A DNA stretch of 48,782 nt from an uncultured Candidatus Saccharibacteria bacterium (GCA_964594965.1 CAZQMX010000003.1:224-49005), one strand, 5' to 3'. Shown: positions 434 through 24,835, counted from the first letter of the stretch. Notes: a model not told the origin generated them from the sequence alone. Made by a program: numbers and translations.

Positions 434-2320
434 ATGGTTAATTTTCTAAGAAAAAGAAAACAAGCCGGTTTTAGTTTAACCGAGCTTTTAGTCGTGATGT
501 TTATTATCGGCCTGCTTTCTTCTCTTGTCCTGATTAATTACCGGAGCAATCAGAATAAGCATGCTCTTTCCCAGTCTACCCAGAAACTGGTTTCTGACAT
601 CAAAAAGGCGCAGAATATGGCTCTGAGCGGGACAGATATTGTCGGGAACTATTACGGTTACGGCGTTTATCTGGTTGATAACGCCACTTCTTATTTAATC
701 TACGGCGATATTAATAATAATTCGAGTTACCAGGTCGGCGATACGATTATTGAGACAATTAATTTAAACGAGAAAATTAGGATTAAAGAAACCGCTCCTT
801 TATCAACTGAAATCGATATCTTTTTCAGGCCGCCCAATCCAATCACCTATATTGATGGCAGTAATTTGGCTGGTAAAAATGCTACTGTTACCCTTGAAAT
901 TATTGATACTTCGAATACTAAGATAGTCACTATTAGTACGGCCGGGGTTGTCCAGGTCGGCTCTCTGCCTTCAATTCCCAATATCCCGCCGGTAGCAGAT
1001 ATTGATGCTGATCCTTTGAGCGGCGATGTGCCCTTAGAAGTTGATTTTGACGCTTCGGGTTCATATGATTTGGATGGAGAAATTGTCAGTTACGAGTGGG
1101 ATTTTGGCGACGGTGATGATGATACCGGCGAGACGACCAATCATACCTATGATGAAGCCGGTGATTATCTGGTCACTTTAGTTGTGACGGATGATAACAG
1201 TGACACAGATAATGATACGGTTAGTATAAGTGTTTCCGAGAGTAACTATTTCGGTGATGGCTTAGACGGAGATGTTACTATTAGTGCTAATACTTCTCTG
1301 GAAGTTCAGAATAAGGATGGTTCCTATGATGGCGATATGGTCGTTATGAATTACAATAATCTGACTATTGATGCTGGAGTGACTTTAACCACTGATCAGC
1401 CTGGCCGAGGTCTTTTAATCTATGTCAGAGAGAATGCTACGATTAACGGAACTCTTTCCATGACAGCCAAGGGTGGTTATTCAGACCCAACAACCGGAAA
1501 GGGCGCGGGCAATTCGCCGTCTGACGATTCGGCAGTCTCGGTTACAGGATTAAGATACCCGGCCTTCGTCTCCGGAGAAACAGATACTTTGTCTTCAGCT
1601 GATTTTGCCGGAACAGGCAATGCTTCAGTGGCGGCAGTTTCCAGTCAGCCTGGTATTAGCGGCGATGGCAAGATATTTACCGTTCAAAGAGAAGGGGCTG
1701 CTGGTGGCAATGGTGGCGATGCTCCTAATCCGCCTACCGAGCAATATGGCCAGACAGGGTATAACGGTAGCGCTGGTCAGTCTGGCGGTGGCGCTGGGGG
1801 TAATGCTCGGACTAATCCGCCCGCTGGAGCGGCTTCTGGCGGAGATGGTACTGCCGGAACATGTTTTTCCGGCGGTTCGGGAGGCGGCGGAGCTGCCAGA
1901 GATAGCGGTGGTGGCACGGTTTCAGCCGGATCATCCTCTGTTTATGGAGGGCGAGGTGGAAACGGCGCAGGATTTAATTGTAGTTATCAGGGTTGTGGCG
2001 GAGTTGGTAATCCAGGAGGTTCTAATGGTGGTTGTAGTGGTAGCGCTCCCAGTGGCACCGGAGGACTCTTGATACTGATTGTCGGCGGAGATTTGAGCGG
2101 TACAGGCAATATTCATGCAAAGGGTACGGCAGGAGCCTATGTTAACTGGAACTGGGTTATGGGAGCCGGTGGTGGTTCAGGCGGCGGCAATATCATTATT
2201 CTTTACGGCGGAACCAACAGCCAAAGTTGGGATATTAGCGCCGATGGTGTTGCTAATAGCGGTACTTCGCAAAGAGGTGGTCATGGTTCTGTCCAGGGTC
2301 CAACGCAAATCAATCCTTAA
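434..2320 (+). CDS. Large type IV pilin-like protein: prepilin N-terminal methylation domain + PKD domain + Gly/Asn/Ser-rich C-terminal region
   Basis: N-terminus KQAG|FSLTELLVVMFIIGLL is a class III signal with Glu at +5. PKD block: DVPLEVDFDASGSYDLDGEIVSYEWDFGDG...YLVTLVVTDDNSDT. The last ~340 aa are Gly-rich (GGNGG, GGGAGG, GGSGGGG). Confidence 0.8.
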   Translation: MVNFLRKRKQAGFSLTELLVVMFIIGLLSSLVLINYRSNQNKHALSQSTQKLVSDIKKAQNMALSGTDIVGNYYGYGVYLVDNATSYLIYGDINNNSSYQVGDTIIETINLNEKIRIKETAPLSTEIDIFFRPPNPITYIDGSNLAGKNATVTLEIIDTSNTKIVTISTAGVVQVGSLPSIPNIPPVADIDADPLSGDVPLEVDFDASGSYDLDGEIVSYEWDFGDGDDDTGETTNHTYDEAGDYLVTLVVTDDNSDTDNDTVSISVSESNYFGDGLDGDVTISANTSLEVQNKDGSYDGDMVVMNYNNLTIDAGVTLTTDQPGRGLLIYVRENATINGTLSMTAKGGYSDPTTGKGAGNSPSDDSAVSVTGLRYPAFVSGETDTLSSADFAGTGNASVAAVSSQPGISGDGKIFTVQREGAAGGNGGDAPNPPTEQYGQTGYNGSAGQSGGGAGGNARTNPPAGAASGGDGTAGTCFSGGSGGGGAARDSGGGTVSAGSSSVYGGRGGNGAGFNCSYQGCGGVGNPGGSNGGCSGSAPSGTGGLLILIVGGDLSGTGNIHAKGTAGAYVNWNWVMGAGGGSGGGNIIILYGGTNSQSWDISADGVANSGTSQRGGHGSVQGPTQINP

Positions 2321-2332
2321 TTAAGTATATAA

Positions 2333-2806
2333 ATGAAAAAAAACGAAAACGGATTTAGTTTTATTGGAGTGATTATAGCCCTGACAATTACTTCGGTTTC
2401 TATCGTTGCTATTTTAGCTTTGATTAACACTTCTTTAAAAGCTGGCAATAAAGGGAAAATGAGTTTAATGGCGGCTGGCTTGGCCCAGGAAGGAATAGAA
2501 CTAATCAGAGATATGAGAAAATCAGAAGCTGACTGGGATGATTGGTATAGTTCGGTTTCAAGCGGTGACTACCTGGTTCAGCATGACAACGGCTCACTTT
2601 TATCTTTTTCCGAGACACCTTTGAAACTAGACAGCAATACCGGACTTTATCAATACGATAACGGTACCAATTCTTCCTTTTACCGCAAAGTGACTTTAAC
2701 CAAGGTTTCAGCCAATGAAATCAAGGTTCTTATTGAAGTTAAATGGTTGTTTCAGGAAAGTTGGCAATATTTAACTGCTGAAAATAGGCTATGGAATTGG
2801 AAATGA
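2333..2806 (+). CDS. Minor pilin / pseudopilin-like protein
   Basis: N-terminus NG|FSFIGVIIALTITSVSIVAIL is a prepilin-like hydrophobic helix that lacks Glu at +5. It sits in the pilin operon. Confidence 0.6.
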   Translation: MKKNENGFSFIGVIIALTITSVSIVAILALINTSLKAGNKGKMSLMAAGLAQEGIELIRDMRKSEADWDDWYSSVSSGDYLVQHDNGSLLSFSETPLKLDSNTGLYQYDNGTNSSFYRKVTLTKVSANEIKVLIEVKWLFQESWQYLTAENRLWNWK

Positions 2807-2824
2807 CCATTTTGTAACAAAATG

Positions 2825-2851
2825 GTCATCCTGAGTGAAATCGAAGGATCT
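2825..2851 (+). repeat. Copy of the short palindromic element GTCATCCTGAG..CGAAGGATCT (family B)
   Basis: gtcatcctgagtgaaatcgaaggatct has an internal ATCCT/AGGAT stem. Related copies are at 26887-26910 (inverted) and 40584-40643. A perfect 9-bp hairpin (2805-2827, gaccatttt/aaaatggtc) immediately precedes it and overlaps the stop codon. Confidence 0.7.
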
Positions 2852-2858
2852 AAAATAA

Positions 2859-3350
2859 ATGAAATTAAAAAACAAAAAAGAAAGAGGAGTCGGCCTGGTT
2901 GAAATGCTGGTTGCTATGGTTGTTTTTGGCTTGATTATGATAACTTTAGGCAATGTCGTTTTTTCTGTTGTTAAGGCCCAGCGGAGGACTTTTGCTTATC
3001 AAAATACCCAGGAAACGAGCCGGTTTCTTTTGGAAATGATGGCCAAAGAAATTAGGACCAGCATTATTAACACCAGCGAGGGAAGCGGTCTGACTGTTTT
3101 AAACATTACCAATGCTGATAGCGAAACCCTTGATTACCAGTTTGATAATACCAACAAACGGCTTTTAAGGGATTACCGGGTTGTCAGTTCGGATGATATT
3201 GAGTTGACCGGATATTTTTATGTTCAGGAATATGCTTCTCCGGCCAGAAAAGTAGTTACGATTACGATGAAAATAGAGGCAACCGGAAATAAGTCGGAAG
3301 AGGTGACAATAATTAATTTACAAAATACTGTTGCTCCCCGGAGTTATTAA
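2859..3350 (+). CDS. Pseudopilin (PulJ/GspJ-like prepilin N-terminal domain protein)
   Basis: N-terminus RG|VGLVEMLVAMVVFGLIMI has Glu at +5. Confidence 0.65.
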   Translation: MKLKNKKERGVGLVEMLVAMVVFGLIMITLGNVVFSVVKAQRRTFAYQNTQETSRFLLEMMAKEIRTSIINTSEGSGLTVLNITNADSETLDYQFDNTNKRLLRDYRVVSSDDIELTGYFYVQEYASPARKVVTITMKIEATGNKSEEVTIINLQNTVAPRSY

Positions 3351-5974: not shown

Positions 5975-6002
5975 TTGACAAAAATTCTCCATTTGCTATA
6001 CT
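5975..6002 (+). promoter_or_regulatory. Sigma70-type promoter of the T-box leader
   Basis: TTGACA (5975-5980), 16-nt spacer, TATACT (5997-6002). Confidence 0.6.
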
Positions 6003-6009
6003 TGTATTA

Positions 6010-6311
6010 ACTTTGAAAATTACAAAACCTATAACTAGATCCCGAGATACTCGGGGTTGGGTCTAGTTTATTCATATCGTTATGAAAGGGTGGTTCTTGC
6101 GTCAGTGAGAGCCCGGCTTCCTCCGTAATCATAGGATAACTGATGTCGTCCCGCCAAGGCGGGAGACTGAGTCGGTAAGTGGTTTTGAATCCGTTTTACT
6201 GACGGATTTTTCCGTTTATATGGGTTCAAAACAAAAAAGGTGGTACCACGGGAAGACCTCTCGTCCTTTTGTCCAAGCTTTGCTTAGACCAAAAGATGAG
6301 AGGTTTTTTTT
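6010..6311 (+). promoter_or_regulatory. T-box riboswitch leader (tRNA-sensing transcription attenuator)
   Basis: AAGGUGGUACCACGG (6237-6251) matches the T-box motif. An antiterminator can be drawn: A1 6235-6240/6265-6270, bulge UGGUACC 6241-6247, A2 6248-6252/6260-6264. A competing long terminator pairs 6255-6278 with 6282-6305 and is followed by U8. Stem I and the specifier codon were not resolved by eye. Confidence 0.7.
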
Positions 6312-6376
6312 ATTAATCTCTTAATAGTTCCTTAACCTAGGACAAAATAAATGATTTCCAGAAAGGAGGATTTGCC

Positions 6377-8839
6377 ATGGTAATAGAGTTGGCAGTCGCA
6401 CAAGACCGCGAACAAGTTGGTGGAAAAGCAAAACGATTATCTTCTTTGATTGGAGCAGGACTTCTGGTGAAAAAAGGAGTGGTTATAACTACCAGTGAGA
6501 TAGAAAACATCCTTGCCACTGGCCGAGTATCGCAAAAGATGCTCGACAAGACTGGTGAGATATTGAAATTTCTAGTAGCCGTTCGGAGTTCTGCCGTCGG
6601 CGAAGACGGCGCGCTAACTTGGGCTGGCCAGTTCAAAACACGCCTCTCGGTATCCTTTGATGCCATAGAAGAAGCAATTCTAGAGTGTGCCAGCGCGGTA
6701 AGCAGCGATGCAGTTAGTGCGTATGCCCAATCGCACGGAGTCGCACGGCCAAAACTTGCTCTTATAATACAAGAGATGGTGAATGCCGAGGTTGCCGGGG
6801 TGCTCTTTACGAAACATCCCATTAACGGTCATGCCGTGGTTATCGAAGCCATTGAAGGCGTAGGAGAATTTCTTGTCTCTGGTCAACGAGAACCGTGCAG
6901 ATTGTATGTAAATCCCGTTTCTCGTGAGGTTGTGAAGGCTGAGGGGGCGAGTATTCCGGTTCTCGGACAGGCCCAGATTGATGAGTTGTGTCGACTTGGC
7001 AAACTCGCCAAAAAAATCTTCGGTAAAGACCAAGATATAGAGTGGGCCATAGAGCGCAACACAGGAACGATATTCCTGCTTCAAAGTAGGGATATTACAA
7101 CACTTAACAGAAAGGGGGAGCAGATGAACATAATCGGTACCGTAAGAAACGTGTTGGATTACGAGACTAGTAGGTTACGACATCTCGGTGTCAATGTCAC
7201 GAAAGATGTGCTAAGCGACCAGAATATTGCGGAATTATTAACGCCACATCCATGTCAAATGGCATTCGGGCTGTTTACATATCTCTTTGCGCATGGCGAA
7301 GGTGCAATTCGTATTGCCCGCAATGAGATGTCGTACGACATCGGTTCTGAGCTTGATATTGGTTTCTTCCATCTGGTCGGTGGACAACCTCGGTGCAGTA
7401 TCGTTCATGATGCGCTAACGTACCGTGTCCGAGGAGTTCCACTTCCAGATTACGCTCAAATGATCCAGTATTATCTCGATCGCATAGAGCAAGATTCGAC
7501 TCTTGCGAACTACCCAGAAGTGGTTCTCTACGACCAGAACCCGTCCGAGAAATTCCTTGTGAGGTTATTTGGTAAGCGCAAAGCTCGACAGTACCGTCAA
7601 GCCTACAATCAATTCTTTGGGAAATTTCGAGAGATTGAAACGACACTCTGGTCTTCGTGCCGCCGCGATTTTCTCAGGAGTTGGCGAGCACGAACCCAAA
7701 GGCAGAGCAAGATAAGCTTTCTGAAAATCCCAGATCTTTGTAAACGGTATGGGGTTGTCGCGAATCTTCTTCGTACCGAGGCTTGCTGCATGTTTGTAAA
7801 GGTGGCGCGGCTTGGTTTTTTTGCCTACGCTCACCTTCGTAATTTGCTCGACGATCTTTTCGGACAAGAAGAGGGAAGACGATACTTAGATATCCTGACG
7901 AGCGGAATTCCTCTTGCCGACAATCCAAATCTTAGATTTAGCGTCGAGTTGGCAAAGATAAGAAACGGCGAGACGTCTGAACAAAAAGTTATCGAAGAAT
8001 TTGGACATCTTGCCATGCATGAGCTGGAAATCTCGGTCCCGCGGTACAGAGAGAACCCAGAAATAATTCGCGTTTTGGCACAACGCATAGCTGATAATCC
8101 ACAACAAGCGATGGAAGAAAGCGTGATGCGAAGCCGCCAACTCAAGGCTGAGCTACTCGCAAAGGCGGGAGCACAAAGTGAAACGTTAGATTATGCAATC
8201 CGTATGGCTCGGGAGTATCTGCCCTTGCGCGAACTCGTAAAATTTGAGTATCTGCGAGGATATGATCTCTTGAGACAGATTGCGCTTCGCATCGAGCGCT
8301 TGCTTAAGTGGGAAGAGGGTTCTGTCTTTCACCTGGATCCGCAGGAAATCTTCGCGTCTAATCAGGATCTTCGCGGTTTTGCTGAGATTGTCGCAAGGCG
8401 CGTCGAAGAACACGAAGCAAACCAAAATCTAATGATTCCGTCCGTCATCTTTTCGGACCACCTAGAGGAAATGGGCCAAGCTCATAGAGTAGAAAACGGA
8501 AAGGTGTTTCGTGGTATTGGAGTTACAGATGTAATTACGGAAGGTAAGGTGGTTGTCGTGCATTCGTCAGATGACAGAGGGGCGATCGCGCGATTATGCG
8601 CAGGGTCAATTCTTGTTACGGTTACAACCGATCCTGCATGGAGTCCAATGCTCTCCGTAGTGGGAGCAACAGGAGGACTGGTCACTGAAGTGGGGGGACT
8701 CCTTGCACATGGAGCAATCTATGCGCGTGAGATCGGCATGGCGGCGGTGCTAAACATCCCCGGTATTACAAAAGTTCTCCGTACCGGGATACGCGTCCGT
8801 GTCAATGGACGCGAGGGAAATGTCGAGATACTCGACTAA
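6377..8839 (+). CDS. PEP-utilizing enzyme with rifampin-phosphotransferase-like architecture (N-terminal ATP-grasp/PPDK_N, helical middle, C-terminal swivel phosphohistidine domain)
   Basis: Blocks GGKAKRLSSL, VAVRSSAVGEDGALTWAGQF and DIEWAIERNTGTIFLLQSRDIT. C-terminus TTDPAWSPML...GGLLAHGAIYAREIGMAAV. No C-terminal TIM-barrel domain. AAAGGAGGA RBS. Visibly higher GC than its neighbours. Confidence 0.8.
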   Translation: MVIELAVAQDREQVGGKAKRLSSLIGAGLLVKKGVVITTSEIENILATGRVSQKMLDKTGEILKFLVAVRSSAVGEDGALTWAGQFKTRLSVSFDAIEEAILECASAVSSDAVSAYAQSHGVARPKLALIIQEMVNAEVAGVLFTKHPINGHAVVIEAIEGVGEFLVSGQREPCRLYVNPVSREVVKAEGASIPVLGQAQIDELCRLGKLAKKIFGKDQDIEWAIERNTGTIFLLQSRDITTLNRKGEQMNIIGTVRNVLDYETSRLRHLGVNVTKDVLSDQNIAELLTPHPCQMAFGLFTYLFAHGEGAIRIARNEMSYDIGSELDIGFFHLVGGQPRCSIVHDALTYRVRGVPLPDYAQMIQYYLDRIEQDSTLANYPEVVLYDQNPSEKFLVRLFGKRKARQYRQAYNQFFGKFREIETTLWSSCRRDFLRSWRARTQRQSKISFLKIPDLCKRYGVVANLLRTEACCMFVKVARLGFFAYAHLRNLLDDLFGQEEGRRYLDILTSGIPLADNPNLRFSVELAKIRNGETSEQKVIEEFGHLAMHELEISVPRYRENPEIIRVLAQRIADNPQQAMEESVMRSRQLKAELLAKAGAQSETLDYAIRMAREYLPLRELVKFEYLRGYDLLRQIALRIERLLKWEEGSVFHLDPQEIFASNQDLRGFAEIVARRVEEHEANQNLMIPSVIFSDHLEEMGQAHRVENGKVFRGIGVTDVITEGKVVVVHSSDDRGAIARLCAGSILVTVTTDPAWSPMLSVVGATGGLVTEVGGLLAHGAIYAREIGMAAVLNIPGITKVLRTGIRVRVNGREGNVEILD

Positions 8840-8843
8840 ACCA

Positions 8844-8878
8844 GAGGGGGCTTCCACTGGAATGCCCCCTCATTTGTT
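8844..8878 (+). terminator. Rho-independent terminator
   Basis: gagggggc, 12-nt loop, gccccctc, then atttgtt. Confidence 0.65.
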
Positions 8879-8910
8879 AAATTCTTGATTTTAAGTAACA
8901 CAATAATTAT

Positions 8911-9567
8911 ATGTCAAAAGATTATTCGTTATTTTTCATTCGTCATGGCAAACTACTTTTGCCGTATAAAGATCATAACGAGATGCCGCTTTCAGTGCTC
9001 GCTGATTTAGCGTCCTCAAAATTAAACCCGCCCATTGATTCAAAATTTGCTACTGAATATATTCCTAGATTAGCTAATAAAATACCTTTAGCAAGTGTGA
9101 AAAAAATATACGCTAGTCCTTCGCAACGATGCCAAAATACAGCACAGCTTATCGGCCAATTCATCTTAAAAAGTTATAACAAGAATATCCATATTGTTAT
9201 TCTTCCAGGGTTAAAGGAAATTCATTTTGACTTATTGAAGCTATGTGCGCACAGCGGCGCATCCCAATTAAACATTGAATCTGTAAACAATGCTGTATTT
9301 AAGGCTATGGTTAATGGAAGCGAATACTGCGAATCTGCTGGAAATGCATACCAAAAAATCAACGAACTCCTTGACTCAGATATTGCTGCGGAATCAAGTT
9401 TGTTCATTACCCACGATTTTTTAATGAGAGTTATTGAGATTTATATCGGGCATGGTGGAGCTTCTCGTCATACAATTACTTACGATGAACTACAGAATAC
9501 ACAACGAAACTTGTATCTTCATGGCTTTGCTACTGATTTTGCGCTTGAAGCTTTTCTCTCCTTTTGA
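8911..9567 (+). CDS. Histidine phosphatase (phosphoglycerate-mutase-like) family protein
   Basis: N-terminal FFIRHGK (RHG motif) and later FITHDFLMRV. Confidence 0.6.
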   Translation: MSKDYSLFFIRHGKLLLPYKDHNEMPLSVLADLASSKLNPPIDSKFATEYIPRLANKIPLASVKKIYASPSQRCQNTAQLIGQFILKSYNKNIHIVILPGLKEIHFDLLKLCAHSGASQLNIESVNNAVFKAMVNGSEYCESAGNAYQKINELLDSDIAAESSLFITHDFLMRVIEIYIGHGGASRHTITYDELQNTQRNLYLHGFATDFALEAFLSF

Positions 9568-9756
9568 AATTAGTAGTTGAGAACAGATGAATTTGCTGAA
9601 GTGGAGTACCGCGAGCGAAGTAAACGGTAATCCTCGTCTTTTCAGGAATTCTTGATAAAACAAGTTCGAGCTTGATTCTTGATTGTATAGATGTACCCCA
9701 AATCATTACTTAAACCAATAAAAATCTTGTTGACAGAATCATATTTTTGTATTAGG

Positions 9757-10761
9757 ATGCTACACGAAGTGAAATCCTTAAATAAATATACACAAAAATC
9801 TTTAGGTATTGGCCTGACTTCAAAATGCAATTTAGATTGCCCGCATTGTTATTCAAAAAATTTAACGAAAAAGACTATCTCATTAAAGACTGTCAGAAGT
9901 ATAGTCAAAAAATTTCCTAATTTAAAAAAAGTTAATTTCGGAACGGGCGAAAGCATCTTAAATCCGGAATTGCCAGAGATAATCGATTTTTTTCACTCTA
10001 AGAATATAAAGATAGCTTTGACCTCCAACGGCATTACAGTTGATAAACTGTCTGACGAGTACCTTTTAAAAATTAATGAAGTAGATATATCTATTGATTT
10101 TCCTAATAGAAGGGATCATGATTCCTGGAGAAAAAAAGAAGGTGTTTTTGATGTCGCGATTGGGGCAATTGAAAGATGTAAAAAATTAGGAGTGGAGGTT
10201 TCAATTGCCGCGACTCTGATGAACATAAATCACTCTGTTTTTAGAGGTTTTAAGAAAATACTGGATAAATACAACATATATCTTAGAGTTAATTTATACA
10301 AACCAGTTAATTCTAATGAGTATAGTTTGAGTTATGACCAATTCTGGAAAGCTATTGGAATTATCGCCGATAATTTTACTCTGGTTTCAAATTCTGAACC
10401 GATTATTTCCCTGACATCTCCCTTATCCGTTGATGTCTGTGGTTCTCCTTGTGGAGACTCGGTGCGCCTACATCCGGATCTAAGCATCAGTCCTTGTGTC
10501 TATGTTGACGGCAACAAGGTTTCTGTAGAAAAGTTTAACAAATTAAAAAAGATTATTCCGGATTTTTGCACGAGTTGTAAATTTTTGGAAAAATGTCAGG
10601 GCGGATGTATGAGTAGAAGAATTCTTGAAGACAGAATATATAAACCAGATAGTTATTGTCCTATTTACAAAGAGAATAAAGCACCGGATATAGAGTTTGG
10701 AAAAGTTGAAAAGAAGAATTTTATCCATAGCAATTATTTGTGTACCTTTATTTTAAAATAA
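9757..10761 (+). CDS. Radical SAM / SPASM-domain protein (rSAM-1)
   Basis: CNLDCPHC cluster and GTGESILNP. C-terminal Cys-rich block CGSPCG...SPCVY...CTSCKFLEKCQGGCMSRR...YCPIY. ATG 9757 places CxxxCxxC at residue ~25; the track's alternative start is 9691. Confidence 0.8.
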   Translation: MLHEVKSLNKYTQKSLGIGLTSKCNLDCPHCYSKNLTKKTISLKTVRSIVKKFPNLKKVNFGTGESILNPELPEIIDFFHSKNIKIALTSNGITVDKLSDEYLLKINEVDISIDFPNRRDHDSWRKKEGVFDVAIGAIERCKKLGVEVSIAATLMNINHSVFRGFKKILDKYNIYLRVNLYKPVNSNEYSLSYDQFWKAIGIIADNFTLVSNSEPIISLTSPLSVDVCGSPCGDSVRLHPDLSISPCVYVDGNKVSVEKFNKLKKIIPDFCTSCKFLEKCQGGCMSRRILEDRIYKPDSYCPIYKENKAPDIEFGKVEKKNFIHSNYLCTFILK

Positions 10762-10784
10762 TGAAATCCAGAGGGAGGTGAATT

Positions 10785-11381
10785 ATGGTTAGTAGATTAG
10801 TGGGAATTGTTGGTCCTTCTGGTGTTGGGAAGACCACTATAATTTCCGATCTGGTTGATGTGAAAAAAAAGTTTGAAAGAATACTTTTCTTTACAACTAG
10901 GACAAAAAGGCAATATGAAATTAACGGCAGAGATTACTGGTTTGTTTCCAACTGTGAGATGGACAGACTATTGGCGGATGACTTAGGCATGAGAGAAAGC
11001 TTGGTCGAATTCAACGGCAATCGTTTTGCCATGAGTTATTTCCAAGTCGATCTTTTTCTCAAATCTAATAAGATAGCATTGCTGGAAGTTTACATCACTA
11101 GAATACCCGATCTTAAGAAGAGATATGGAGATAGTTTTCTGGCTTTCTTTCTTTCGCCGCAAACAATTGACACCCTGTGTAAAAGACTAAGAAACTATCG
11201 AGCCCACAAAGAAGATTTTGTTGGGGAAAGAATGAAACAAACCAGAGAAGAATTGGATTCGTTCACCAATAGTTTTAAAGATTTTTTTGACGGATCTATT
11301 ATTTTAAACTCGCATTTGGAAATGGCCAGTAGGCAGGTTGAAAAAGCCATTCTGGAATGCGTAAACAGGTCAAAGACCTAG
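10785..11381 (+). CDS. Guanylate-kinase-like P-loop nucleoside monophosphate kinase
   Basis: GPSGVGKTTI Walker A and TTRTKRQYEINGRDYWFVS (guanylate kinase signature region). GAGGGAGG RBS. Confidence 0.7.
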   Translation: MVSRLVGIVGPSGVGKTTIISDLVDVKKKFERILFFTTRTKRQYEINGRDYWFVSNCEMDRLLADDLGMRESLVEFNGNRFAMSYFQVDLFLKSNKIALLEVYITRIPDLKKRYGDSFLAFFLSPQTIDTLCKRLRNYRAHKEDFVGERMKQTREELDSFTNSFKDFFDGSIILNSHLEMASRQVEKAILECVNRSKT

Positions 11382-11416
11382 AAGGGTGACAATCAAATTA
11401 ATGATTGTCACCCTTC
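11381..11416 (+). other. Perfect 15-bp intercistronic hairpin
   Basis: gaagggtgacaatca, loop aattaa, tgattgtcacccttc. It starts at the last base of the upstream stop codon. No T-run follows. Confidence 0.8.
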
Positions 11417-11427
11417 AATTAAAATTT

Positions 11428-12969
11428 ATGTATTCAGATAAAAGAAAACTGAAGAATTCTAATTATTCTTTTCTGTTTAACGATGGAAAGGAAAATTATG
11501 CCCTTTATCATTCTTTGAGTTGTAATGTTATCTACGGGGGTAAATTATTAAAAAAGATTTTTACCCATTTTCTGGATTACAGTGCTTATAAAGATCTTTT
11601 GGTAAAAAATAAGCGGTCGAAGGAGTTGTTTGAAGCTTTGTGTAAACACGGTTTTATTCTTGAAAACGGTTCGAAAGATGAAAATACATTTAATGATTTG
11701 CGGCAAGAGACAAGAAAAAAGTTCTTTATAAAAACTCTTTATCTGAGTATAACCTACAAATGTAACTTCAGGTGTAAATACTGTATTAGTAATAATTCTG
11801 TGGCTTTGGACAAAAACAAGAGTATTTTATCTATAAGCATGACAGAAAAAGTTGCCAAAGCGGCAGCCGATTTTTATTTAAAAAAAGTCAGAGAAGATGG
11901 GGATAAAGAAGTTGTTTTTTACGGAGGCGAGCCACTGTTAAATTTCAAGGTCATAAAATTTCTGGTTGAGTACATAAATAAAAAAGAACAGTCCAGAATT
12001 TTGAGAAACAAAAGATATAAAAAAAGCAGATATATTCTGTGCACAAACGGCACGCTGATAAACAATAAAATAGCTTTGTTCTTAAAGGAAAAAAACATTT
12101 ATCCAACAGTCACCTTTGACGGCGATAAAGATACGCATAATAAAGTTAGGATATGTGCTAATAAAAAAGGTACCTATAGAGATGTTTTAAAGTCATATAA
12201 GATATTGGAAAAATTTGATTTTCCAATAGGCGTGACCTTAACTTTGGGTAAACACAATATTAACCAGTTGCCAGGTTTTGTTAAGTTGTTCGCTCAAAAG
12301 CTTAATCCTTTTACCATGGCAACAAATATCATGGTTGATTACGATGGAGGCGGAAATGAGTATGTTTGCAATGGAAATATATTGGCCGATAATTTAATAA
12401 AAGCCTTTAAGGTTGCGCGCGGGGAAGGATTATATTTGGTTAAATACATTATGGACAATAGAGTAAAGCCGTTTGTCCAAAAAGATCCGCGATTAAAAGG
12501 TTGTACGGGGACAGGTTCGCGCATTATGGTCCTGCCGGACGGTTCGTTGTCGGCTTGTATGGTCTATGCAAAGAGTTCAAAAACAAAACTAGAGGATAAT
12601 CCCAATCTGGAAGATTTTATTCCTAATGGAATTAAATACTACTCTCCCTTTTTTAAGAACGAATGTAAATCTTGTTTTGCGATTTCCTGTTGCGGTGGTG
12701 GATGTCCCAAAAACGCAGAAATTAAACACGGTACTTTTTTTAGTCTGGATAATGATTATTGCTTACAAAGTAAAAAGTTTTTGGAATGGTTAATTTGGGA
12801 CTTATTTAATTTATTGGATAAACCTCATTGGTCTAGCGAGAGTTTTCTAATTCCCAATGATCAAGACCGCAGAAAGATTTATGGAAAGATAAAGGTGTTT
12901 GAGAATCCGTTGGATTTCCAATATACTCCCAATATTGAATGTAATGAAAAAAAATATAGTAAAAATTAA
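11428..12969 (+). CDS. Radical SAM / SPASM-domain protein with ~110-aa N-terminal RRE/PqqD-like extension (rSAM-2)
   Basis: CNFRCKYC, FYGGEPLL, and SPASM block CTGTGSRIMVLPDGSLSAC...CKSCFAISCCGGGCPKNA...YC. The start is uncertain (ATG 11428, ATG 11401 or GTG 11386) because the hairpin covers 11381-11416. Confidence 0.8.
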   Translation: MYSDKRKLKNSNYSFLFNDGKENYALYHSLSCNVIYGGKLLKKIFTHFLDYSAYKDLLVKNKRSKELFEALCKHGFILENGSKDENTFNDLRQETRKKFFIKTLYLSITYKCNFRCKYCISNNSVALDKNKSILSISMTEKVAKAAADFYLKKVREDGDKEVVFYGGEPLLNFKVIKFLVEYINKKEQSRILRNKRYKKSRYILCTNGTLINNKIALFLKEKNIYPTVTFDGDKDTHNKVRICANKKGTYRDVLKSYKILEKFDFPIGVTLTLGKHNINQLPGFVKLFAQKLNPFTMATNIMVDYDGGGNEYVCNGNILADNLIKAFKVARGEGLYLVKYIMDNRVKPFVQKDPRLKGCTGTGSRIMVLPDGSLSACMVYAKSSKTKLEDNPNLEDFIPNGIKYYSPFFKNECKSCFAISCCGGGCPKNAEIKHGTFFSLDNDYCLQSKKFLEWLIWDLFNLLDKPHWSSESFLIPNDQDRRKIYGKIKVFENPLDFQYTPNIECNEKKYSKN

Positions 12970-24666: not shown

Positions 24667-24743
24667 GCCAGCGTAGCTCAGTCTGGCAGAGTGCTGGCTT
24701 CGGAAGCCAGAGGTCGTTGGTTCAAATCCAATCGGCCCGACCA
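24667..24743 (+). tRNA. tRNA-Pro(CGG)-like gene with non-complementary acceptor stem
   Basis: Normal D arm (gctc/gagt), anticodon arm ctggc-UUCGGAA-gccag, T arm gttgg-ttcaaat-ccaat, A73 and encoded CCA. The 5' strand gccagcg does not pair with the 3' strand cggcccg. Confidence 0.5.
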
Positions 24744-24758
24744 ATTCTAATTTAATGT

Positions 24759-24835
24759 GGCGATGTAACTCAGGTGGTTAGAGTTGCGGGTTCATACCCC
24801 GTGGGTCACCGGTTCGAATCCGGTCATCGCCACCA
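24759..24835 (+). tRNA. tRNA-Met(CAU), either elongator-type or Ile2
   Basis: Acceptor ggcgatg/catcgcc, anticodon loop UUCAUAC, T loop ttcgaat, encoded CCA. G1:C72 argues against an initiator. Confidence 0.85.

Follow-up and report, generated by a model that had tools for sequence, protein, structure and literature searches.

A T-box leader with a truncated Stem I probably places a Patescibacteria-specific RPH-fold dikinase under tryptophan control

The locus

The window analysed here, a 48,782-nt stretch of DNA from an uncultured Candidatus Saccharibacteria bacterium (GCA_964594965.1 CAZQMX010000003.1:224-49005), contains a gene for an 820-amino acid (aa) enzyme of the rifampin phosphotransferase (RPH) fold, preceded by a leader of the T-box riboswitch type and followed by the gene of a histidine phosphatase. 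Very probably, the leader is a tryptophan-specific T-box that acts by transcription attenuation and controls this single gene, whose product is a small-molecule dikinase specific to Patescibacteria (the candidate phyla radiation, CPR). Coordinates are positions in the whole window, and loci carrying homologs of the dikinase are designated by L and a number. The features of the locus are the following.

5975-6002, plus strand: predicted sigma-70-type promoter, called by position only; TTGACA (5975-5980), 16-nt spacer, TG-extended TATACT (5997-6002)
6027-6091, plus strand: first part of the decoding module, with closing C-stem, truncated Stem I and an extra hairpin; compensatory changes in every helix, fold z = -2.7
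6057-6061, plus strand: specifier bulge UUGGG, with the assigned codon UGG (Trp) at 6058-6060 and the next purine G6061; bulge invariant in 12 short-Stem-I leaders
6092-6113, plus strand: Stem II, GGUUCU 6092-6097 with AGAGCC 6108-6113; all 6 pairs covary
6114-6139, plus strand: Stem IIA/B pseudoknot, supported by covariation
6140-6175, plus strand: extra helix X, CUGAU 6140-6144 with GUCGG 6171-6175, around a variable hairpin (6150-6163); supported by covariation
6177-6232, plus strand: first part of the discriminator, purine string AAGUG 6177-6181 and Stem III, 6182-6189 with 6225-6232
6237-6268, plus strand: T-box sequence and antiterminator; Rfam alignment with posterior near 1.0 here
6253-6311, plus strand: intrinsic terminator, long hairpin at about 6253-6303, then U8 (6304-6311); minimum free energy (MFE) and centroid structures
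6377-8839, plus strand: RPH-fold small-molecule dikinase, 820 aa; PPDK_N and PEP-utilizers domains, invariant His, fold matches
8845-8872, plus strand: GC-rich, terminator-like hairpin with a weak U-tract, after the dikinase gene
8911-9567, plus strand: His_Phos_1 histidine-phosphatase superfamily protein with an N-terminal RHG motif; adjoins the dikinase in 30 of 38 loci

The T-box core and the terminator

The promoter, which the initial annotation had read as TTGACA-16-TATACT, is present; it matches the consensus at 11 of 12 positions and carries the TG extension. Such matches numbered 7 against 6.3 expected, i.e. there is no overall enrichment, and transcription is predicted to start near 6009-6011. 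The near-consensus T-box sequence noted in the same annotation, AAGGUGGUACCACGG, was located at 6237-6251. In the Rfam alignment the antiterminator is formed by helix A1 (AAGG 6237-6240 with CCUU 6265-6268) and helix A2 (ACGGG 6248-6252 with CUCGU 6260-6264), and the 7-nt bulge UGGUACC (6241-6247) between them agrees with the Rfam consensus structure. This bulge reads the NCCA end of a tRNA. Folding of the leader gives a terminator hairpin of about 26 pairs, the 5′ arm of which overlaps the 3′ strand of the antiterminator, so that the two folds are mutually exclusive. The same arrangement was found in related leaders, and the fold z-score of the entire leader is -7. These data bear out the antiterminator and the mutually exclusive terminator with its U8 tail as they had first been proposed. 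Together with the covariation reported below, the terminator/antiterminator pair supports a real T-box acting via transcription attenuation.

The discriminator shows the RRRxG-Stem III-AA motif described for T-boxes (review PMC7583486). Inside Stem III, at about 6188-6213 of the window, AAUCCGUUUUACUGACGGAUUUUU is a sequence-conserved hairpin followed by a U-run. This element, AAUCCGUUU(U)ACUGACGGAUUUUUUU, of which the loop is conserved too, is shared by the short-Stem-I leaders of the window, L052, L062, L067, L069, L070, L071 and L074; it resembles an internal terminator or a pause site.

At the gathering threshold (93 bits), the Rfam scan returned no match to the T-box family RF00230 in the window. 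A sub-threshold match covers 6022-6271 with 41.9 bits (E = 5.7e-8 when only the leader is searched, 5.4e-6 with the full window), and RF00230 is the sole plausible Rfam match for this leader. The posterior is near 1 over the 3′ half of the alignment, and 88 model positions of Stem I are deleted; the score is low because Stem I is truncated and lacks the distal platform. The region 6027-6311 is a genuine transcriptional T-box leader, although a structurally unusual one.

A covarying decoding module in related leaders

A metagenome scan with a 20-sequence alignment as query yielded 78 loci, to which exact look-ups of the nearest relatives added 2. T-box cores were found upstream of the enzyme, or of an operon containing it, in about 17 distinct loci. 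The core RRGNGGNAYYRCR stands directly 5′ of the enzyme gene in the window, L051, L053, L055, L057, L062, L063/65, L068/82, L069, L070, L071, L074/79 and L075. Elsewhere the T-box precedes an operon with the enzyme as second gene, the first gene encoding an EamA transporter (L052), a low-molecular-weight (LMW) phosphatase (L061), a TrpB-like protein (L067) or an AstE/AspA deacylase (L072). The same design occurs upstream of orthologs with only 40-50% protein identity. None of 13 related leaders scanned with Rfam reached the threshold, which makes the design consistently atypical; T-box regulons in CPR genomes are probably under-annotated because this design escapes the gathering threshold.

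Upstream of the enzyme family, Stem I takes a long, a short or a terminal-loop form (the last in L075). The long canonical form, with AGAGA and GGUGNGA distal motifs, is found in L057, L061, L068/82 and L072. The short form, found in 12 leaders, has a lower helix of 5 bp and above it a capped hairpin, the two being separated on the 5′ side by a single U and on the 3′ side by an invariant RUUGGG. It is followed by a 6-bp Stem II with an AGUG loop, Stem IIA/B around CCGUAA, helix X, AAGUG, Stem III, AA and the T-box. Six leaders (L051, L053, L062, L067, L069, L070) contain the textbook K-turn frame CC-AAUGA...CUGA-GG, while the window, L052, L055, L063, L071 and L074 have an extra hairpin and a three-way junction in its place.

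In the window, the closing C-stem pairs ACC 6027-6029 with GGU 6089-6091. Stem I (6035-6066) is reduced to a 5-bp lower helix (CUAGA 6035-6039 with UCUAG 6062-6066) and a 6-bp upper hairpin (6041-6055) capped by a 3-nt loop. Neither the distal platform (AG bulge and distal loop, which stack on the tRNA elbow) nor a K-turn (GA motif) at the base of Stem I was found in the window leader; it has ACC-UAUAA...hairpin...A-GGU instead, and the extra hairpin 6071-6086 generates a three-way junction where other leaders have the K-turn. The loop of Stem II carries an invariant AGUG, equivalent to the half of the S-turn that reads AGUA in the Rfam consensus. The pseudoknot is made of IIA (CGG 6114-6116 with CCG 6123-6125) and IIB (UCCU 6119-6122 with AGGA 6133-6136), with an F-box-like CCGUAA at 6123-6128. 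All 4 pairs of IIB covary (UCCU/AGGA, GCCC/GGGC, UCUC/GAGA, UUCU/AGAA). Helix X, which is absent from canonical T-boxes, covaries as well (UCGAU/GUCGA, CCGGU/GCCGG, UUGAU/GUCAA; general form CUGAU with GUCRG).

For the covariation analysis the helices were extracted by sequence anchors; in global MAFFT alignments, K-turn and junction subtypes had their Stem I 3′ strands out of register. Across six helices of the 12 leaders, Stem I, Stem II and IIA/B among them, standard pairs occupy 335 of 336 cells, and compensatory double changes were observed in 23 of 28 base pairs. Column shuffling, repeated 2000 times, gave means of 0.81 for pairing and 11.3 for compensatory pairs, and no shuffle reached either observed value. 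Structurally, this RNA represents a new variant within a known riboswitch class, and the gene pair under its control is new as a T-box target. Literature searches for T-boxes in CPR/Parcubacteria, or for a Trp-regulated phosphoenolpyruvate (PEP)-utilizing enzyme, returned nothing relevant. The coexistence of long, short and terminal-loop forms of Stem I, together with the exchange of K-turn for junction, amounts to a natural experiment on which parts of Stem I are dispensable.

A separate T-box was seen at L063:528-763. It is canonical and above the Rfam threshold (112 bits), carries GAA-CGA-G at the specifier position (possibly Arg), and lies 5′ of a 156-aa open reading frame (ORF), roughly 1.1 kb upstream of the dikinase's Trp T-box.

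Specifier codon and tRNA ligand

According to the T-box database TBDB, the specifier consists of nucleotides 2-4 of its bulge, counted from the 3′ end. Applied to the R-U-UGG-G of the short Stem I, this rule reads UGG; the Stem I and the specifier that had been left unread in the initial annotation were located comparatively (6035-6066 and 6058-6060). The long-Stem-I leaders carry GAA-UGG-A (L057, L061, L072) or GAA-UGG-C (L068/82) at the canonical position, and the L075 leader presents AGAAUGGG in its terminal loop. The long, short and terminal-loop forms have no triplet in common except UGG.

The reader in the T-box bulge occurs both as UGGU and as UGGC, the latter in 7 leaders. The two are typical of Trp T-boxes, 46% of which have a U opposite G73 (TBDB). 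G73 was found in 8 of 8 normal CPR tRNA-Trp genes of these loci, all with the anticodon CCA, and either the U (by wobble) or the C of the reader pairs with it. The discriminator A that had been deduced from UGGU is wrong because the CPR tRNA-Trp carries G73. A tRNA-Trp gene and a UGGC T-box were found on one contig in L069 and L075. From this sequence comparison we assign UGG as the specifier and tRNA-Trp as the ligand.

L075 contains a second tRNA-Trp(CCA)-like gene (6593-6668, minus strand) beside the normal one (6709-6783), about 3 kb from the Trp T-box-regulated dikinase. It has G33 instead of U33 and a U73 discriminator, is devoid of an encoded CCA, and may be a pseudo-tRNA or a decoy.

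Recurrent tryptophan control of the dikinase family

The genes that surround the dikinase were examined in the related loci. A tRNA-Trp gene lies within 5 kb of it in 8 of 35 loci, and trpS is near in 10 of 38 (TrpRS scoring 290 bits on TIGR00233, cutoff 177); both occur there far more often than expected by chance. A TrpR-family gene (PF01371) adjoins the dikinase in L046, L073 and L084. The first gene of the L067 T-box operon encodes the TrpB-like enzyme, which depends on pyridoxal phosphate (PLP; NF009057, 738 bits); a phosphatase and a deacylase gene come after the terminator of the dikinase at that locus. Trp 2,3-dioxygenase, prephenate dehydratase and a chorismate-mutase fusion were seen near the dikinase in single or few loci. 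A neighbouring PLP decarboxylase was considered as a tryptophan decarboxylase; NCBIfam names it histidine decarboxylase, and it was not counted as tryptophan evidence.

Leader ORFs with tandem Trp codons were found in 5 of 7 loci devoid of a T-box, versus 0 of 17 loci with a T-box. They are the following.

L124:3755-3885: leader ORF with tandem Trp, peptide MESNRRVNVLNWWWTL (stop), terminator after
L126:45-200: leader peptide ...SIWWRT..., with W-W-R-T as in E. coli TrpL, terminator after
L046:4747-4900: leader peptide ...GWWS..., terminator after
L050:3842-3990: leader peptide ...TWWS..., terminator after
L049:243-275: leader peptide ...DDWW (stop), with tandem Trp codons

A terminator follows the leader ORF in 4 of 4 loci whose flanks were examined (L046, L050, L124, L126). 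In L124 the Trp codons are located in strand 1 of a 1:2 hairpin, GGACUUUG with CAAAGUCC, and the terminator loop repeats GGACUUUG; the 1:2 / 2:3 / 3:4 pairing logic was recognized in both L124 and L126. This layout of Trp codons and terminator is the classical attenuation arrangement, and the predicted pairings indicate that Patescibacteria use ribosome-mediated attenuation of the trp type. For the two enzymes most closely related to that of the window (62% and 72% identity), the leader-peptide mechanism is used and not a T-box, which shows that the signal is conserved while the mechanism has been replaced.

The dikinase family is therefore part of a tryptophan regulon. That the same enzyme is placed under tryptophan control by three mechanisms (T-box, WW attenuator and TrpR-family neighbour) points to an undescribed function in tryptophan starvation. 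Three unrelated mechanisms combined with linkage to trpS and tRNA-Trp are about the strongest "guilt by regulation" signal that comparative genomics can give.

The dikinase

The dikinase gene is preceded by the ribosome binding site (RBS) AGGAGG, 7 nt upstream of the start. In the protein, the ATP-grasp domain occupies about 1-245 and is followed, at about 246-700, by a helical substrate-binding region that carries PF27448 Rph_4th, and by a swivel domain in which a TxxGGxxxH motif ends at the catalytic His778. This motif, T770-E-V-G-G-L-L-A-H778, fits the T/SxxGGxxxH swivel motif of small-molecule dikinases (PMC12167813), and H778, G773 and G774 are invariant among the homologs. The AlphaFold model has a pLDDT of 89 and a pTM of 0.78. 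Its best Foldseek match is the full-length Listeria RPH (PDB 5hv1; E = 4e-33, about 20% identity), whereas PpsA, HpeI (9goj) and PPDK are matched only via the ATP-grasp or the swivel domain. Domains and fold confirm the RPH-like ATP-grasp and swivel-His enzyme recognized initially, and the view that it is an unusual target for a T-box is upheld.

All NCBIfam equivalogs (the RPH, PigC, RedH and PRK06241 models) were missed by wide margins; the RPH models gave 192 bits for a cutoff of 999 (NF041857) and 131 for 1700 (NF000283). The PEP/pyruvate TIM-barrel domain PF02896 was not found in the dikinase, its swivel domain is C-terminal, and TIGR01418 scored 150 bits versus 740; lacking the TIM-barrel domain, the enzyme is not a PEP synthase. 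Identity to the closest homologs is 35-72%, and all named ones belong to Patescibacteria/CPR lineages (Wildermuth-, Magasanik-, Kerfeld-, Buchanan- and Sungbacteria). A contig scan with a single protein query retrieved only distant ATP-grasp relatives (Acidobacteria, Comamonas). On its sequence, the enzyme is best described as a new, CPR-specific subfamily of RPH-fold small-molecule dikinases.

As had been noticed at the outset, the dikinase gene is more GC-rich than its surroundings; windowed GC contents are 0.47-0.50 for the gene and 0.33-0.40 for the flanks. Compared with its neighbours the gene has 0.49/0.38 in the window, 0.51/0.36 in L063 and 0.50/0.40 in L079, and an excess of both GC and GC3 was measured in many loci. 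The phosphatase gene is GC-poor (0.22-0.37) in AT-rich loci. The excess is a property of the dikinase family and does not indicate recent transfer into this genome. The initial suggestion that the unit was laterally acquired is thus unsupported, since the excess recurs in the orthologs, and all named close homologs are Patescibacteria.

The phosphatase partner and the transcription unit

The histidine phosphatase had been recorded as a neighbour. It is indeed adjacent, but it is more than that: in 30 of the 38 loci, the window included, the dikinase is followed by a His_Phos_1 protein of about 220 aa, which thus represents a conserved partner. An LMW phosphatase adjoins the dikinase in 4 loci and is fused to the enzyme in P0059.

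The spacer between dikinase and phosphatase measures 70-160 nt in all but two of the paired loci, being 10 nt only in L052 and L059. Nearly all of the 70-160-nt spacers contain a clear terminator, a GC-rich hairpin with a U-run, and then an extended -10 box, TGTAAAAT, which lies some 6 nt ahead of the ATG of the phosphatase gene. The His_Phos_1 genes lack a Shine-Dalgarno sequence; the -10 box precedes the ATG in the window (8873-8911) and in orthologous spacers, e.g. L063:4941-5041. These features suggest that the phosphatase usually has its own promoter and a leaderless mRNA. The monocistronic cassette first described is essentially right for the kinase, the unit of which usually extends from T-box to terminator, but the phosphatase is nonetheless its functional partner.

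Further downstream (9691-12969), the window encodes a radical SAM protein, a guanylate-kinase-like protein and a peptide-maturase-like protein of the radical SAM/SPASM type, the best match of which is FibroRumin/PapB-type, below the cutoff. This region may be a cluster for ribosomally synthesized and post-translationally modified peptides (RiPP type) and is not syntenic with the dikinase elsewhere. A link of the dikinase to this radical SAM operon, upstream of which the initial annotation had placed it, was rejected: besides the window, a homolog of the 9691-10761 gene lies near the dikinase in only one other locus (L068).

Two other regions of the window deserve mention. Three consecutive ORFs at 434-3350 have N-terminal prepilin-type methylation motifs, one of them with PKD domains too; they resemble a gene cluster of the type IV pilin-like kind, as would suit the CPR lifestyle. 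At 24672-24734 (plus strand), 25 nt upstream of a tRNA-Met gene (24759-24835), Rfam gives a tRNA match of 48 bits restricted to model positions 6-65 and not called by ARAGORN, which may be a truncated or unusual tRNA.

Proposed mechanism and function

The data above show the RNA architecture with its covariation, the specifier, the recurrent tryptophan control and the protein fold. What follows on how the switch responds, on the chemistry of the enzyme and on its role in the cell is inferred, for the switch from structural work on T-boxes. The nascent leader would fold its truncated Stem I to present UGG, and Stem II with IIA/B would dock as in actinobacterial short-Stem-I T-boxes, so that the decoding module binds the CCA anticodon of tRNA-Trp. 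If this tRNA is uncharged, its free 3′ end G73-CCA would pair with the UGGU of the bulge, stabilize the antiterminator and allow readthrough into the gene. A charged tRNA-Trp could not pair, and the hairpin 6253-6303 with U8 would end transcription. By analogy with known T-boxes, we hold with high confidence that uncharged tRNA-Trp acts through the antiterminator to give readthrough.

By homology, the dikinase would take the β-phosphate of ATP onto His778 and transfer it to an acceptor of the hydroxyl type that sits in the central helical domain, the products being AMP, Pi and the phosphorylated substrate. The His_Phos_1 protein might then remove that phosphate or reset the dikinase. Such a kinase/phosphatase pair would raise the level of a phosphorylated compound or protein specifically in tryptophan starvation.

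Tentatively, and with clear doubt, the two proteins may be seen as a hitherto unrecognized module for tryptophan acquisition or the response to its starvation, representing the main Trp-tRNA-sensing output in many Patescibacteria, organisms unable to make tryptophan. Its possible versions are speculative. A serine (or other) dikinase could feed O-phosphoserine to TrpB2-type, indole-salvaging tryptophan synthases, an idea that stays speculation because a TrpB-like gene is near in only 1 of 38 loci. The dikinase could, also speculatively, trap by phosphorylation a membrane-permeant indolic or phenolic tryptophan precursor from the host; scavenging or trapping by phosphorylation has been discussed for HpeHI (PMC12167813). 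In a third speculation, kinase and phosphatase would jointly control the amount of a phosphoprotein or phospho-metabolite by which the cell is switched to a starvation state. CPR are ultrasmall bacteria thought to depend on hosts for amino acids, and the substrate of the dikinase would show how they cope with shortage of the scarcest one.

Alternative explanations

Several observations weigh against a Trp T-box that drives a dikinase. The Rfam score is under half of the gathering score, the K-turn is replaced by a three-way junction of predicted geometry, and there is no distal platform for contact with the tRNA elbow, a design known so far mostly from translational T-boxes of Actinobacteria. 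No trpS, tRNA-Trp or other tryptophan gene lies in the window itself. Moreover, a metabolic route in which a phosphatase accompanies the kinase looks futile. Finally, ViennaRNA pairs U6040 with G6061 in the MFE fold, which leaves a GUUGG bulge and makes UUG (Leu) a possible frame in the short form. The leader could on this basis be a T-box for another amino acid, the RUUGGG bulge offering Leu (UUG by the 2-4-nt rule), Gly (GGG) or Val/Ile (GUU/AUU), and the discriminator A first deduced would fit tRNA-Leu. The discriminator is A73 in tRNA-Leu and U73 in tRNA-Gly. We give this reading very little weight. UUG does not occur in the specifier loops of the long-Stem-I and terminal-loop leaders, the UGGC of 7 leaders mismatches A73 and U73 and pairs with the G73 observed in tRNA-Trp, and the first bulge position is either A or G, which excludes a fixed GUU or AUU codon. 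Leu is excluded because of these ortholog leaders, the UGGU and UGGC readers opposite G73, and a genomic context of trpS, tRNA-Trp, TrpR and WW leader peptides, which argues against any other amino acid as well. The lack of distal platform and K-turn and the sub-threshold score would also suit a decaying, non-functional T-box relic, with the gene expressed constitutively by readthrough. This is hardly credible in view of the near-perfect pairing and compensatory changes in 12 divergent leaders, the conservation of all discriminator motifs and of the terminator, and the persistence of the design ahead of such distant orthologs.

Other explanations concern the enzyme. The initial annotation saw a rifampin- or antibiotic-type phosphotransferase, and if it were a laterally acquired, antibiotic-inactivating enzyme, the T-box would be incidental. 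The closest solved structure is indeed an RPH, and the gene is GC-richer than its flanks. However, the RPH cutoffs are missed by far, and only about 20% of residues are identical to RPH; the CPR orthologs show the excess of GC and GC3 too, beside a GC-poor partner gene, so that it is a family trait; three independent tryptophan-sensing mechanisms control the family, whose neighbours are tryptophan-related; and the conserved phosphatase would undo an inactivating phosphorylation. We therefore regard this explanation as very improbable. Improbable too, if less extremely so, is a defence of the pair against inhibitors of TrpRS, in which an indolmycin-like compound would lower charging, induce the dikinase, and be phosphorylated and inactivated by it. 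It would account for the fact that T-box and WW attenuator sense charging and not free tryptophan, trpS is often adjacent, and the RPH fold serves drug inactivation. On the other hand, TrpR-family regulators, present in 3 loci, classically sense free tryptophan, the operon partners (EamA transporter, TrpB-like protein, AstE/AspA deacylase) suggest acquisition and not defence, the phosphatase speaks against inactivation, and no candidate inhibitor is known. The tryptophan-specific T-box controlling a dikinase of starvation remains the reading that we favour.

Comparison with known systems

The closest structural parallels are the translational ileS T-boxes of Actinobacteria, which possess a truncated Stem I lacking the elbow platform, followed by Stem II and IIA/B (review PMC7583486). 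The window leader resembles those of Mycobacterium and Nocardia in having no distal platform, an AGUR Stem II, a covarying IIA/B, the RRRxG-Stem III-AA motif and a 7-nt UGGNACC bulge. The ileS T-boxes are, however, translational (the RBS is sequestered), specific for Ile and linked to an aminoacyl-tRNA synthetase (aaRS) gene, whereas the window leader combines a terminator and U8 with UGG and a dikinase gene, in Patescibacteria. It also differs in that the specifier is located in a 3′ bulge beneath a capped hairpin, a three-way junction stands for the K-turn, and helix X precedes Stem III. Truncated-Stem-I T-boxes thus extend beyond the ileS leaders, and a terminator-based Trp version is common in Patescibacteria. 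With the class I Trp T-boxes of Firmicutes (trpS, trp operon, trpXYZ; RF00230, TBDB), the leader shares tRNA-Trp as the assigned ligand, UGG, the UGGU/UGGC readers opposite G73 and the terminator/antiterminator switch. In the Firmicutes leaders, Stem I is long and includes an AG bulge and a distal loop; they score above 93 bits and serve aaRS, biosynthesis and transport genes, in contrast to the 41.9 bits and the orphan dikinase found here.

As for the enzyme, RPH (5hv1, 5fbs; PMC4844700) has the same succession of ATP-grasp, helical substrate-binding and C-terminal swivel-His domains and is the best match in sequence and fold. The dikinase differs from it by its low identity, its tryptophan-related regulation and neighbourhood, and its phosphatase partner, and nothing points to an antibiotic substrate. 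HpeHI, CreHI and PpsAB share the ATP-grasp and swivel chemistry, the TxxGGxxxH motif and a second substrate domain that is not a TIM barrel; they phosphorylate hydroxyls of small aromatics, with a proposed scavenging or trapping role (PMC12167813). They are catabolic two-subunit enzymes of Actinobacteria and Proteobacteria, whereas the CPR dikinase is a single chain with predicted induction in tryptophan starvation. Finally, the leaders of L046, L049, L050, L124 and L126, with their WW or WWW ORF, resemble the E. coli trpL attenuator; this type of mechanism is not used in the window and takes the place of the T-box upstream of orthologs.

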